Made by a program: the position numbers. Positions 15,001-21,000 of a stretch of DNA of 36,359 bases are shown piece by piece. This DNA comes from an uncultured Dehalococcoidia bacterium (GTDB lineage Bacteria; Chloroflexota; Dehalococcoidia; Lucifugimonadales; UBA3495): NCBI GenBank assembly GCA_950072105.1, contig CATMOE010000038.1:1-36359 (forward strand), given 5' to 3'. Each line of letters begins with the position of its first letter. The stretch's first letter is position 1.

Positions 15001-18000
15001 ACATAGCCTGGCACGTTGGCTAAAGGGCTCCATCGACTTCAAGATCGATGAGGACTACCCCATAAGAGTCCTAGCCACCGGCATCGTGCACTCTCATCCT
15101 CCGGTCCACCGGGCGCACATGGGTTCCATCCCCAGCCGATTCATGATCGGCACCATCTCCTTCACCCAAACGGCGTTGGCAGAATTGCTGCATCGGGAGA
15201 TGGAGGACGCCGGATTAGCGGCGCGGGCGTCGGCAGCCTGGAATAAACTGATGATGTTGCAGTTGGACATATTGCTGGCCGGTTATCTAACCGAAACGCC
15301 CACCGAGCCGGAGCCCTCCGGACATGAAAGCTCCAGCGGACCGTGCTAAAAAAGCCGCGCCGTGTGTCTATCGGACCGGGACTCAACAATACATGGATTG
15401 GAGATTAAGCGATGACTAAAGTGCTGGTGATCCAGGGAGCAGGGATGAACATGCGGGGCAAATCCCAATTGGACATCTTCGGCCCGACCACTCTGGACCA
15501 GATCAATGAACAGATTCTTGGCTACGCCGAAGGTCTGGGGATAGACGTTGAGCTATATCACTCGAATATCGAAGGCGAAGTAGTCAACGCCATATATGAT
15601 GCCCACGACCGGCAGATAGACGCGGCAGTGATCAACCCCGCCGGCTACACCACCACCACCGGGCCGCTACGCGCCGCGATCACCCAGGTGGGATTTCCGT
15701 TCATCGAAGTACATGCCTCCAACCCCACGGCCAGGGGAACGGTGTCCAATGTACTACCGGTGTGCAAAGGCTCGGTCTACGGCTTCGGAGTTTACGGATA
15801 CTACCTGGCCTTGGAAGCTGTCAAGCACATGTGCGCCGAGTAGTTTTACTGGGGTTGGAATTTGATCGGGGCAGAAGCACCCCCATCCTAACCTTACCCC
15901 GTAAAGGGGGAAGGGACTAATCTCCTCCTCCCTTGCGGAGGAGGATTAAGGTGGGGGGTACCGTAGCCAGCACCGCCGGTCGGGTAGCGTACCAGTCGGA
16001 CTGGAAGCTATCCGCACCAAAGGCAACGGGTCTCATCGAATACGGTGGCCTGAATATCAGGGTTGGACAGCAGGTAGTCCACCATGATCCGCACCACCTT
16101 GCTTTCGTCGGGAATGTTGTACTGTTCTTGGGTGGATCTGAGAAACGCGATCTGTTCCGCGCTTAGATCGATCTGATAAGCATCCTTGGCTCCAGCCATG
16201 GGTCACTCTCCTGCAAACACCACCGGCCTTCCGGTCGATGGAATAAATTCTGGGATACCTGGTTTCGAATAGGGCCGTTCGGACGGGTCAGGCGATGTCG
16301 ATACCCACCGGGCAGTGGTCCGATCCCATCACGTCGGCGAGAATGTAAGCGTTCGTGACCTGGGAAGAAAAAGCGTCATCCACAAAGAAGTAGTCGATTC
16401 TCCAACCCACGTTCCGGTCCCGGGCGCGGGTCATCTGGTCCCAATAGGTATAGTTCTCCGGTTCCTGGTTGAACATGCGGAAAGTGTCTTTATAGCCGTG
16501 GCTGATGAACTTGTCCATCCATTCCCTTTCGATGGGCAAGAAGCCCGATGTGCCCTTGTTGGGTTCCGGCCGCGCCAGGTCTATCTCTGTGTGGGCGGTA
16601 TTCAAGTCGCCACAAAGCACGATGCCCTTACCTGACGCTTTAATCTTTTCCACGAATTCCAGAAAGTGGTCGTAAAACTCCATCTTGTACTGCAGACGTT
16701 CGCTGGATGACTGGCCGTTGGGAAAGTAGATGTTGATCAGAACGAACCGGCCGTAGTCGGCAACCAACACCCGGCCTTCTTTGTCGTATTCCTCGACTCC
16801 CAAACCGAAGCTAACCTGTTCCGGTTCAGTTTTGGTGTAAAGGCCCACTCCACTGTAGCCCTTCCTCTCAGGTGTCGAGAAGAACGAGTGGTAACCTTCG
16901 ATTTCCTTCAACGCTGCCGGCAATTGGTCCACATGGGCTTTCGTCTCCTGCAAGCACATTATGTCCGGGCTTGTTTGGCCCAACCACTCCACGAATCCTT
17001 TCTTGTGAGCCGCCCGAATCCCGTTGACGTTCCAGGAAATTGCTCGAATCGTTTCCGCCATTTCAGATCTCCTCAAGGGGTCCGGGGAGTTTGGTCACCT
17101 AAGTTGCACCAAACCAATGAGTGGTTCGACGAACTCACCACGAACGGTAGGATGCGCTTTCGCCGTTCGTCCTCAGCCTGTCGAAGGACCCAACGTCGAA
17201 GGCGATGATTCCGAGATATCCGCTAGGGCCGGATCAACACCCGAACGGTTCCGTCGGCGTCCTTGCGGTGGTTGAGTACGTTGTGTTTCCCCTGCTCGGC
17301 CCAAAGGATGACATCGTAGATGTTCAGGGCGTCGGCCAGGATGGCCTCCACTAAAGATTTATCGTCGTACTCCATCTGCCTGGCCAGGGCGGCGATGACA
17401 CCGGCGCAACTCTTGCCCCGGCCGTCGATGACCACCCAACCGCCCCCGGAACCGTTGCTGGGCATGGTCATTGCTTCGTTGAAATTGGCCCCGGAACTAG
17501 CCCCTTGGAACCCATTGGCTTCGGAAAATACGTTAACTTCACCGGTCTTGCGCATGTCCAACTGGCGCTTGAATTCGGCCACTGACTCCCAAGCAACCGA
17601 CCGTCCCCGGTCTCCATCGCCGCATACAGCGCCACGGACCCCGACGATGTCTGGATTGACTCGAGCTAACTCGTCCAAGTCAGAGATTTTCAAGTGACCC
17701 GACAATGCGGTACTCATACCCATCTCTTTTCCCTGGAGAACCATCTCCTTCAATTTGGCTTCTGTGATGAAATCAAATAGATTTCTACCGTCCTTGGTCA
17801 GAGTATCGATGAGCCATCCGTCGCACTGGCCGTCTTTTGCCAGCTGGACCATGCACATGGGATCCAAGCCGCCGTCGTATAGCACATTGTCGGCAAAAAC
17901 CGAGCCTACCAACTTGCAATTGAAACCCTCCATCGCCCGCCGGGATTGTTGGAGGATGTCAACGGCGGTGTCGTAGTCGGTGGTTCGAAAACCAACCTTG

Positions 18001-21000
18001 ACCGACGTAGCGTTCAAGCTGGCGGCGGCATAGGCAGCCATGGCCACCGTGCCGGCCTGATTGGGTACGACTCCGAGGGTAACGCTGACGTGATTCTCCG
18101 GCTGGATCTGGGACCGGACTTGGTGTACCACCGAGGGATGGCCCGAACCGACCATCGCCTCTTGCAGGTTCTTAACGTCCACTACGTCGGCTCCGCCCCT
18201 TTCGGCCTCCAGCGCCTCAGCCACGTTCTGGACGCTTACCATCAACAGCATTCCGGAGAAAAAGGCATTGTTGCCGGTCAGCCAGGACACCCGGTCGTTA
18301 ACCGGCTCGGCGGGCACGGCGTGAACAACTGGCTTGGGCTTTAGCGGTTCTAACTCCCGGCGCAGTTCGTCCTTTTGCTGGCTAGACATGTCTCCCAAAG
18401 GCGCTCGTGCGTGTCCGGTGGACAGGCCCATCAGTTCTCCCCAATATTTCACCATGGGTATGGGCAATGCGCCGTTTAGCTGGTCGACGGTCCGCGTCCA
18501 CCACGTGTCGGAGAGCTCCTTGATTCGGCGCAGGTGTTTGTCGTAGAAAGGCTCGTCCAGGTTTCCTTCGGTAGCCTTGTCGATAAATTGGACGTAGTAG
18601 TTGGCCTCCGGGACGTCGAAGCGCCAATCGGAGGTGTTGGAAAACATGACCTGTTGCTCAAAGCCAAGTTCCTTACCTTTCCAGAATATCCACTCGTCGG
18701 GAGTGCTGATGACGTGGTCCTTGCCCAGTGACAGGTGAGTCTCAATGGATAACTGCTGGTTGAAACTTGCTTCTTTAACACCCACCACGTTGGGTATCTG
18801 ACACAGTTGTTTAAGGCTGGAGGGACTTAAGACTATCCCGAATTGCGGGGAGTTGTAGAACATGATGGCCAGTGAGGTTTTTTCGGCCAAGTAGCGCACC
18901 CACTCGACCACTTGCTCTTCCGTCTTGGTAACCATGTAAGGAGGAGCCACGATCAGGACATCGTATCCCATAGTTTCGGCATTGCGGGCCAGGTCTAACA
19001 TGGCATGCGCCGATGTGTGGGTTACGTGAGCGCCGATGAGCCACTTGCCTTGGGATTCGTCAGCCACGACTTCCATCACCTTCAGACGCTCTTCGTGGGT
19101 CAAGCTCCAGAACTCACCCATCCCCCAAGTGCACCCGGCGCCGCGGGTACCCAACTTCTGAATATGGCGGATGTTATGGCGCATCCCGGTGTCGTCAAAC
19201 TCGTCGTCCGGGGTGAAGGGTGTGATCAAAGTGGTCCATTGGCCTTTCAAGGCGTCCTTGGCCCATTCCTGCGCTTCCTCTTTGGTATAGGTGGCCATCT
19301 TGTAACTCCTCTCGTATGGCTAACGATTGATTGCTTTTCACTGAGGCATTTTATGCTTTTATCCGGCTTCAGTCCATATGTTAACGGTTCCACTGGTCAG
19401 ACCCGTCCAGTTCTTACGAAGGCCCCAAGCGAAGCGCGATAGGTAAGAGTTGCCAATGGGCATGAAACAGATTCCGGCGAAGAAAAAGCCCCGGCGATTA
19501 TTGCCGGGGCATGTTAGTCGATACTTGCGGCTAAAAGCTGATACCGGGCTTAAGTGGCGATCAAGTTTTCTTCGATCGCTTTGGGCCGGAGGCCGCTATG
19601 CTTTACCAGATGAGCCTTTATAGCGTCTATAGCGGTTGCTACCAACGTGGGATCAATTAGATCAGCCGCTGGGCCGTACTCCGCTTCTTGAAGCAATGCC
19701 TTGGTGTTATCCTGGATCTGCTGGTAAGCCCACTCCACTTGCGTGGCGACTGTGTTGACACCCTCGGGGAAATCACGGTGGGAGTTTCCCGGCCTCTCCA
19801 GACGGTCATATCCGCCGCCGTGCCAGTGGCCGATCGCGTCGTGGCAATCCCATCGCAGGACTTCTTCGTTGCCCACGTCGATGCCTATGGTCGGCCCGCC
19901 GCATCCCTTCTCTCTGATCGTCAATATCCGTAAAGGCCACACGTAGGCGGCAATTTGTCCATCCTGAGAAAGGGGCAAATGCAGCGCCTCGCCTCGATAA
20001 GTTTCACCAGGTATCTTGGTCGCCATATATTCTCCTCCATTGTTATCAAGTGGTATCGGCCCCTGAGTTTCGTTCGCCGAAAGAATCCCTTACCCTGCCA
20101 CGATTCCATCGTGGCCTGCCCTCTGCCAAAGGGAGAGGGGATGGGGTGAGGGAAAATCTACCACCTGCGGTCTAGTAATAACGCAGTTCTACGACGTTAT
20201 CGTCGGGGTCGTAGACGTACAGGGAGATTCCGTCGCCGTGGGAACCCCAGCGCTTGCCGGGCCCGGCTTGGATCCCCACACCCATCGCCTCGAACTTGGC
20301 CTTCAACTCGTCCATGTCCGTCTGCTCAATGACCATGCAGAAGTGGTCCTGGTTCTTGACGCCATCTCTGTCGATGGGTTCTTGGTCGCTGCCGAACAGG
20401 TCGATGATCGTATCATCGTTTAGGCGCGCCGATGGGAATCGTACGTCGCCGGCCCGCCACTCATCTATCCGCTCGGGCTTCAGACCCAGTGTCCCGGTGT
20501 AGAACTGGAGAGACCTTTCCACGTCCTTAACTCTAAGAACGATGTGATCCATCTCGGTTATCTTAACCAGTGGCTGTACCTTGGTCGATGAAGCCCTCTC
20601 TGTTTCGGTCGACATTGTCGTCCTCCTACCATTAAGAGATTACGTGGTAATTATGCGCGCCGGAATACCAGACATCTTATTTGGGATAATTGTAGCGTCG
20701 GCCCCACATGGGGTCAACAATCTAAGGTCCGTGCGGATCAGGAATCGGTGAATCCGAGTTCCTTGTGCGTCCCGTCGCAAAGGGGTTTCATTGCCGAGGC
20801 CCCGCACCGGCACAGGGTCACTCTATTGCGGGTCTCCAGGGGCTTTCCATCGCTCCGTTCCACCGGGATACCCCCGGTGATCCATAGAGGCCCATCGGGA
20901 ATCGCCACTACCTGTTTAGGAAGCTCCGGCTCAATAATCTCGCCTTCGGCTTCCAGAGAGTAGGCAAGCGCCCCCGAGGGACAGTTATCTATCATGTCTA

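Follow-up and report, generated by a model that had tools for sequence, protein, structure and literature searches.

A DHDPS-like, MfnB-like and TusA-like domain fusion in Dehalococcoidia and its probable role in respiratory-quinone biosynthesis

Two early routes to the menaquinone ring are known, through MenB-H or through the futalosine enzymes MqnA-E. The functions of the later enzymes MqnP, MqnL and MqnM are genomic predictions in PMC4746308. A survey from 2026, covering 26,264 genomes, places Chloroflexota among the lineages without a recognizable quinone pathway, mentions four species that have menaquinone yet lack a pathway for it, and states that further quinones may remain to be discovered (PMC13386864). 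Published papers name Lys27 and Lys155 as active-site residues of the methanofuran enzyme MfnB (MJ1099; PF04476; PDB 4RC1 and 4U9P). We present here a gene from an uncultured Dehalococcoidia bacterium that joins an MfnB-like domain to two others; it lies in a window of 36,359 nucleotides, the whole stretch of DNA analyzed. For the module formed by the three domains, the direct observations are its domain make-up, the invariance of its catalytic residues, its co-occurrence and shared operons with late quinone genes, and its near mutual exclusion with the known early routes. A literature search returned no description of the module, none of a quinone role for it and no quinone measurement for any carrier.

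The fusion gene (17223..19298, minus strand) encodes 691 amino acids from an ATG start, with the sequence of a ribosome-binding site, AGGAG (19306..19310, minus strand), 8 nt upstream. A terminator-like hairpin (19488..19510, minus strand) closes the gene upstream of the fusion, which suggests a separate promoter for the fusion; a sigma-70 match at 19376-19348 scores 9/12, within chance expectation. There are no Rfam matches in 14000-23000. Pfam matches are DHDPS at aa 17-317 (E = 1e-32), 4HFCP_synth at aa 352-576 (E = 7e-53) and TusA at aa 623-690 (E = 3.5e-5; 24 bits, below the cut-off of 28.6). We designate the parts, all on the minus strand, as DH (DHDPS/NAL-fold barrel; aa 1-319; 18342..19298), MF (MfnB-like barrel; aa 350-590; 17529..18251) and TU (TusA/SirA-like domain; aa 619-691; 17226..17444). 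An independent RNA-library contig covers the stretch from end to end, with zero gaps and 3 substitutions, so the fusion is not an assembly artifact, and the open reading frame, Pfam domains and this contig together bear out the DHDPS-MfnB-TusA fusion of the preliminary description. The fusion was found in 14 RNA-library assemblies, a presence that is no proof of transcription. A full-length model was mediocre (pLDDT 63, pTM 0.40) and uninformative on domain contacts. The window neighbors xth, aroQ, hpaB and the genes for a glyoxalase and a CDGSH protein were rejected as partners, as they are conserved solely in the nearest relative (L031).

By its fold, Schiff-base Lys175 (codon 18776-18774) and Tyr148, DH belongs to the DHDPS/NAL class I aldolase superfamily (DapA, NanA, KdgD, YagE, PhdJ), and both residues are conserved in 194/194 genes. 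Its predicted model (pLDDT 97) matches many DHDPS-family structures at Z scores of 31-34 and 14-22% identity, with no closest subfamily, and a protein atlas search returned DHDPS-labeled clusters only. Unlike the family, DH carries G/N-M in place of Thr44/Thr45, turning the GTTGE loop into W-G/N-M-G-E, has its own motif NTSDWRFD, and falls below every NCBIfam cut-off. Lysine-pathway DapA was rejected as an identity: the loop reads WGMGE, TIGR00674 gives 87 versus 206 bits, and another gene of the genome, scoring 294 bits, is of DapA type.

MF matches MJ1099/4RC1 at E = 3.6e-38 and shares its fold (TM 0.86) at 36% identity. Residues D374, K376 (codon 18173-18171), K434, D498, K502, R555, C559 and R564 are invariant. 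The positions of MfnB Lys27, Lys155 and Arg217 and the equivalents of two Asp and a second Lys (Asp25, Asp151 and Lys85, which we take to be further active-site positions) are among those that do not vary, and the catalytic two-Lys/two-Asp set is kept in 200/200 genes. MF groups apart from MfnB, in a clade of its own (support 1.0) borne by a long branch. MfnB Asp55, an Asp in 34/35 other MfnB-like proteins, is Val, Ala or Ser in MF; Pro29, Gly32, Ala36 and Ser188 are likewise altered, and V410, L378, S385 and H535 are clade specific. Scores lie under the NCBIfam equivalog cut-offs (NF002573, 181 versus 341 bits; NF002575, 178 versus 304). Unlike MfnB, MF is tied to DH and TU and occurs in genomes without FTR and MCH, each found in 0/60 genomes by searches whose positive controls worked. 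The absence of FTR and MCH noted earlier is thus confirmed, and a methanofuran/H4MPT role was rejected. The furan-derived, possibly sulfur-containing metabolite proposed at the same time stands in part: the module is conserved, single copy, biosynthetic, unrelated to methanofuran C1 transfer and equipped with a possibly sulfur-carrying domain, but a furan origin of the product is a conjecture: MF has clade-specific changes at positions that hardly vary among other MfnB-like proteins, and its scores lie far under the equivalog cut-offs.

TU is the sole PF01206 match in the genome. It shares with TusA/SirA carriers (PF01206; PDB 1PAV, Ta1170/Ta1414) the beta-alpha-beta-alpha-beta-beta order, the N-terminal Cys and a conserved Asp and Trp, and its profile matches 1PAV at E = 7e-5; one archaeal TU reaches 29 bits on PF01206 (cut-off, 28.6). 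It differs in lacking the CPxP motif, in scoring below the Pfam cut-off in the window, and in being fused to or beside MF. Within the GxxCAG motif previously noted in all 24 aligned sequences, only the Cys is invariant (Cys631, codon 17408-17406; 199/199), G633 being Ser in 13 sequences and A632 variable in archaea. Judged by sequence, TU is possibly a sulfur carrier.

The three parts exist as one fused gene, two genes or three genes, in the order DH, MF, TU in 55/55 loci examined, some of which are repeats of one genome. Carriers are Dehalococcoidia and, beyond the SAR202 setting first proposed, three archaeal groups (Thermoplasmata, Micrarchaeota and Marsarchaeota), with 50-60% identity between bacterial and archaeal modules. 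They include deep-water SAR202-type bacteria and some archaea. PF04476 is present in 49/60 relatives, one copy in each, and in 33/35 members of the window's own family, in agreement with the single-copy core gene described before; the earlier count of an adjacent aldolase gene in 5 of 6 loci is replaced by 13/13 split-form genomes of the order. Archaeal genomes of 0.8-1.3 Mb retain the module in one run with mqnL/mqnP. Plasmids hold MfnB relatives only at 35-38% identity and without TU, and one genome (G213) has MF and DH with no TU anywhere. Neighbors kept around the split forms are housekeeping genes (recG, fakA, degV, rpmB, hemA, pheA, trkA/H); no aminotransferase, kinase or ligase like MfnC/E/F is conserved among the scanned neighbors.

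Elsewhere in the window's genome, contig C27 contains a mqnL-mqnP-ubiX-menG operon of late futalosine-type genes. Its mqnL scores 627 on TIGR03701 (cut-off, 496), and its mqnL and mqnP are 70% and 61% identical to those of a futalosine genome (G048); the prenyltransferase has MqnP models as best matches but lies beneath their narrow cut-offs. The genome has no mqnD, mqnB or UbiC match, MenB is below cut-off (207 versus 343 bits), and the search for mqnC and mqnE yielded nothing beyond MqnA-like genes and a single radical-SAM gene that falls short of the MqnC cut-off. One or two MqnA-like genes, about 40% identical to G048 MqnA, occur in 34/35 family members and in the window's genome, without mqnC/D. 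The window contains no late quinone gene, and fetched flanks of 8-10 kb contain one in only 24/200 loci. Operons that join the module to late genes are mqnL-mqnP-ubiX-FUSION-menG (L049), mqnL-mqnP-ubiX-FUSION (L050), DH, MF-TU, mqnL, mqnP, ubiX (L206, L207), and the archaeal MF-TU-DH-mqnL-mqnP (L238) and DH-mqnL-mqnP (L399). A UbiA beside DH (L237), which is a heme o synthase, and a UbiD not of MqnL type (L230) were excluded from the count. Much of the nearness of module and late genes in split-form genomes is inherited synteny.

The preliminary description had overlooked this pathway context, in which the module is tied to mqnL/mqnP/ubiX/menG and set against the early genes of the Men and futalosine routes. 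MqnL (TIGR03701), the late decarboxylase of futalosine type, is present in 48/49 carriers and 0/4 MenB genomes. MenB or MqnC over cut-off occurs in none of the 49; across the 60 genomes MenB is over cut-off in 4 and MqnC in 2, and none of these six is a carrier. Within the order, the 24 genomes outside the window's family show a known early route in 0/15 carriers versus 6/9 non-carriers (nominal Fisher p = 6e-4 for kin that are not independent). A class sample has TIGR03701 in 8/8 carriers versus 29/150 genomes overall. Archaeal and other carriers have an MqnL-like gene in 19/19 cases (13 over cut-off); MenB is over cut-off in 0/19 of these and 0/5 class carriers. PF02621, searched in 10 of the 19, is found in 0/9 archaea, and the small archaeal carriers have chorismate synthase in 0/5 and DHQ synthase over cut-off in 0/5. 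Absences in archaea are weak because the archaeal genomes are incomplete metagenome-assembled genomes. Family f54 contains 4 carriers and 2 MqnA+D genomes with zero overlap; there, the mqnP-ubiX-mqnL run of G151 continues into two radical-SAM mqnC/E-type genes and mqnA, early genes that are missing from the same late trio in G198 and G133. G213, lacking TU, has mqnA, C, D and E, a futalosine route alongside MF and DH. Neither the module nor a full early route accompanies mqnL in G039 (one contig, 97% complete) and in 14/150 class genomes. In 2/6 inspected mqnL genomes without an early route, an NMT1-type binding protein lies directly 3' of ubiX, where a precursor importer might be expected; inspected carrier loci have no importer beside mqnL. 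UbiC was rejected as a ring source (0/5 genomes). The MqnP-like proteins of Micrarchaeota are divergent, and the first of their Asp-rich motifs is altered.

Because the module sits where both known ring routes are missing and the finishing enzymes are kept, a role in making the quinone ring is likely: DH-MF-TU would be an alternative early respiratory-quinone pathway, replacing MqnA-E/MenB-H and making an aromatic acid for MqnP/MqnL/MenG. Such a route would be one not described before. Like MfnB, MF would condense triose phosphates via a Schiff base, here on Lys376, and the resulting C6 unit could be something other than the furan; DH would use Lys175 to bring in another carbonyl compound, either pyruvate or a sugar phosphate, and close or dehydrate the ring; and Cys631 of TU would carry sulfane sulfur or a covalent intermediate. 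The water-soluble acid would then be prenylated by MqnP, decarboxylated by MqnL with UbiX/MqnM, and methylated by MenG. Counting against this reading are the futalosine route of G213, the MqnA-like genes in the window's family, the genomes in which mqnL stands alone, the small share of loci with a late gene nearby and the divergence of micrarchaeal MqnP.

If this role holds, there is nearly an even chance that the product is 1,4-dihydroxy-6-naphthoate, leading to ordinary menaquinone; a sulfur heterocycle is a tentative candidate, and an oxygen heterocycle or single ring a more tentative one. As arithmetic only, 2 triose + pentose - 7 H2O gives C11H8O4, and 2 triose + pyruvate + S(0) - 5 H2O gives C9H6O4S, both with no redox enzyme. 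One specific version, which we regard as unlikely, is that MF draws on two triose phosphates, DH on pyruvate and TU on persulfide sulfur to make a sulfur-containing bicyclic hydroquinone acid, e.g., 4,7-dihydroxybenzothiophene-2-carboxylate, with no redox enzyme or chorismate, and that MqnP/MqnL/MenG convert it to a sulfolobusquinone-like, probably higher-potential quinone. A bacterial group that ranks among the most abundant in the deep ocean would then respire with a quinone known so far only in Sulfolobales, or with a new one. More generally, a quinone role would let a single expressible protein close the quinone gap in three archaeal groups and in much of the SAR202 radiation. It would add either a third menaquinone route, radical-SAM-free and perhaps chorismate-free, or the synthesis of a new quinone of possible use as a lipid marker for SAR202, and would give MfnB-type chemistry a role beyond methanofuran.

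Three other explanations were weighed. That the module belongs to quinone metabolism but modifies or salvages a ring from another source (by inserting sulfur, by methionaquinone-type methylthiolation or by converting an imported aromatic) is improbable. The invariant TU Cys, MF and DH beside a full futalosine route in G213, and the MqnA-like genes of the window's family fit it, and methionaquinone enzymes are not yet known according to PMC13386864. Tailoring should, however, co-occur with an early route, which 0/15 carriers have; no importer adjoins mqnL in inspected carrier loci, and two Schiff-base barrels fit C-C bond formation. A cofactor or metabolite that derives from the furan 4-HFC-P and has nothing to do with quinones, with the quinone link a matter of inherited gene order, would agree with the retained MfnB catalytic set, the MJ1099-like fold and the housekeeping neighbors at most loci. 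We consider it quite improbable, as it leaves unexplained the MenB/MqnC exclusion, MqnL in all distant carriers and the differing bacterial and archaeal operon orders, and neither FTR and MCH nor conserved MfnC/E/F-like neighbors were found in the genomes and neighborhoods scanned.

A catabolic or detoxifying unit, performing a retro-aldol reaction on a sugar acid or aromatic breakdown product as part of a SAR202 enzyme expansion, is very improbable. DHDPS-family folds do include catabolic aldolases and dehydratases, and PMC10444878 describes expanded catabolic paralogs in SAR202; against this, the module is single copy in every carrier, is strongly conserved between bacteria and archaea, persists in small archaeal genomes with mqnL/mqnP, and has no conserved transporter or dehydrogenase neighbor.

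The likely quinone-ring role places the module apparently in the same slot as futalosine MqnA/E/B/C/D, feeding MqnP, MqnL/MqnM and MenG, and the two alternate inside one order and one family. Unlike those five enzymes, the module has three domains, no sequence relation to them and no radical-SAM enzyme, and it occurs in genomes in which no chorismate synthase was found. The thiazole synthase ThiG/ThiS and the PLP synthase PdxS are also TIM barrels that use a Schiff base to assemble an aromatic ring out of sugar phosphates, and ThiG works with a small sulfur carrier. Their likeness to DH-MF-TU is one of analogy only, with different products and no homology claimed.

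The DHDPS-MfnB-TusA fusion reported in the preliminary description is real: the open reading frame at 17223-19298 (minus strand) encodes 691 aa, in which Pfam places DHDPS at residues 17-317, 4HFCP_synth at 352-576, and TusA (under cut-off) at 623-690, and a single contig from an independent sequencing run covers the whole gene with no gap. The closest solved structure to the fusion is MJ1099, an MfnB (E 3.6e-38; TM 0.86). The three parts are called DH, MF, and TU here and, fused or separate, the module. Between the fusion and xth, a short segment (17121-17192), found again in further contigs from the sequencing runs with loose ends and a depth peak, is probably a small dispersed repeat. 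Genes for a double CDGSH/Fer4_19 iron-sulfur protein (20738-21526), a protoglobin (14774-15349), and an HpaB-type hydroxylase (10485-11975) also lie near the fusion and are kept beside it no further than the nearest relative.

MF residues D374, K376, K434, D498, and K502 are kept in 200/200 genes and line up with the MJ1099 catalytic set, which we take to include Asp25, Lys85, and Asp151 beyond Lys27 and Lys155. Lys27 is the Schiff-base residue of MfnB and Lys155 is catalytic, according to PMC6604932 and PMC11365854. Several loop positions nearly invariant in MfnB-like proteins (n = 35 others) are changed in the MF clade, and MF scores 125 to 160 bits short of the NCBIfam cut-offs; 4-HFC-P therefore cannot be assumed as its product. 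DH is confidently predicted to have a DHDPS fold and keeps K175 and Y148 in 194/194 sequences, with GTTGE replaced by W-G/N-M-G-E; the genome has a separate DapA-type gene. A wider, unnamed DHDPS-like subfamily (proteins P0253 to P0390), with Betaproteobacteria among its members, conserves E62, W64, K175, P200, E202, K284, W286, and R298. TU has the strand-helix order of TusA, matches the TusA/SirA-like structure 1PAV, and keeps Cys631 in 199/199 sequences, at 23 to 34% identity to archaeal TU. By the tests run, the module falls outside MfnB, DapA, and both early routes to menaquinone.

PF04476, the MF profile, was found in 49 of 60 genomes, one copy each (this genome, 33/35 family members, and 15/24 genomes from other families of the order), which bears out its description as a single-copy core gene of the family. 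It occurs in 8 of 150 other genomes of the class, in two families and always fused. The best 80 of 567 matches to a stand-alone MF protein include 18 archaeal records (11 Thermoplasmata, 4 Micrarchaeota, and 3 with Marsarchaeota in the title) and one other bacterium. A set of 200 distinct MF genes from retrieved loci, picked by similarity, comprises 119 full fusions, 62 MF-TU genes (DH adjoining in 61), 18 archaeal genes with TU encoded separately (DH adjacent in 15), and 1 gene lacking TU; the three archaea without adjacent DH carry it elsewhere, in one case in two pieces. The module is conserved across two domains of life. In trees, the 12 fused forms tested cluster together (support, 0.59 for MF and 0.96 for DH), and Dehalococcoidia sequences stand apart from archaeal ones. 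One fused form from a record titled Actinomycetota (L196) nests within the Dehalococcoidia fusions, indicating transfer or mis-binning.

A methanofuran role for the module is rejected. The methanofuran-linked enzymes FTR and MCH were found in 0/60 genomes (positive controls worked), and no fhc- or H4MPT-type neighbors, with which bacterial methylofuran genes cluster (PMC8141765), were seen around the module in the loci scanned.

We consider it likely that the module builds the ring of a respiratory quinone by a route not yet described. Which genomes have or lack the genes tells more here than operon nearness does. MenB (classical route) exceeded its cut-off in 4/60 genomes and MqnC (futalosine route) in 2/60, none of them carriers of the module. 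TIGR03701 (MqnL, late decarboxylation) matched in 52/60: 48/49 carriers, both futalosine genomes, G001, and G039, and no MenB genome; the lone carrier without a match is 89% complete. In the class sample, MqnL occurs in 8/8 carriers and 7/7 genomes with MqnA and MqnD, two sets without overlap; these co-occurrence counts include kin and are not independent. Archaeal and other carriers have an MqnL-like gene in 19/19 and MenB over cut-off in 0/19, the archaeal genomes being incomplete. MqnP, MqnL, and MqnM are proposed late futalosine steps, found in gut genomes only alongside that pathway (PMC4746308).

Late genes also adjoin the module, in the operons mqnL-mqnP-ubiX-fusion-menG (L049) and mqnL-mqnP-ubiX-fusion (L050), at two loci with DH, MF-TU, mqnL, mqnP, and ubiX (L206 and L207), and as MF-TU-DH-mqnL-mqnP (L238) and DH-mqnL-mqnP (L399); this neighborhood is seen independently in archaea. 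The retrieved flank holds a late gene at 24/200 loci and none at 176/200, and mqnL lies within 30 kb of the module in 10/15 order-level carriers, much of which is shared synteny. In this genome, mqnL-mqnP-ubiX-menG is on contig C27, and its MqnL and MqnP cluster in trees with those of an order member with the futalosine route (70% and 61% identity), which argues that both act on the same or a similar substrate. In two Marsarchaeota (L398:9130-9984 and L306:298-735), DH adjoins a UbiA-family prenyltransferase gene (MenA-like, under cut-off, in L398) and MF-TU is near a chlorite-dismutase-family gene; at L397, DH has a cysteine-desulfurase-like gene some 2 kb away.

In the proposed pathway, MF would couple triose phosphates, DH would contribute a second carbonyl unit before ring closure, the TU cysteine might donate or carry sulfur, and the resulting compound would pass to MqnP, MqnL, and MenG. 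Chorismate synthase and DHQ synthase were not found in five small archaeal carriers (0.8 to 1.3 Mb; incomplete genomes), which favors central metabolites as substrates. As arithmetic rather than route evidence, formulas balance without a redox enzyme for two trioses plus pentose to naphthoate (C11H8O4) and for two trioses plus pyruvate and sulfane sulfur to dihydroxybenzothiophene carboxylate (C9H6O4S); the benzofuran analogue is off by two hydrogens. The sulfur version would give one substrate per domain and place the carboxylate on the far ring, where MqnL would require it.

Several results count against the quinone reading. G213, the sole carrier without TU, holds mqnA, C, D, and E, and the window's own family retains MqnA-like genes without other early genes. 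The MF-DH locus without TU is that of bacterium YP4.bin17 (L241:5716-11818 and L400), adjoining tryptophanase-like lyase and heme-copper oxidase genes, with a full futalosine early set elsewhere in the genome. The family's MqnA-like genes (as at L316:950-1720 and L317:76-831), retained in 34/35 members and without mqnC/D, often adjoin an MTHFR-like gene or scyF-like propeller. Moreover, mqnL occurs without a complete early module of either kind in G039 and 14/150 class genomes; mqnL therefore does not imply the module, while the module implies mqnL. The G039 assembly, one contig at 97% completeness, contains mqnL-mqnP-ubiX-menG (C1:3512000-3531999; L361) and lacks the module, MqnA/C/D, and MenB, pointing to another route or salvage. 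Among six mqnL genomes without an early route, two have an NMT1-type binding protein directly after ubiX, one has a gene run matched by size alone (L386:11498-14092), and three show nothing telling. In the first two (L385:3843-6427 and L387:11428-12327), mqnL-mqnP-ubiX continues directly into an NMT1/SsuA-type ABC transporter, a candidate importer of a quinone ring precursor.

Neither the module nor an MfnB-like enzyme in quinone synthesis was found described in the literature searched, most subscription papers lying outside it, and the text-mined table in the supplement of PMC13386864 has no Dehalococcoidia row. Sulfolobales have sulfur-ring quinones with uncharacterized pathways, according to that paper; PF04476 was not found in the control genome of Sulfolobus acidocaldarius, which rules out the module as their pathway. 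The two known routes to menaquinone exclude each other and are frequently swapped (PMC13386864); the module acts like a third option alongside them.
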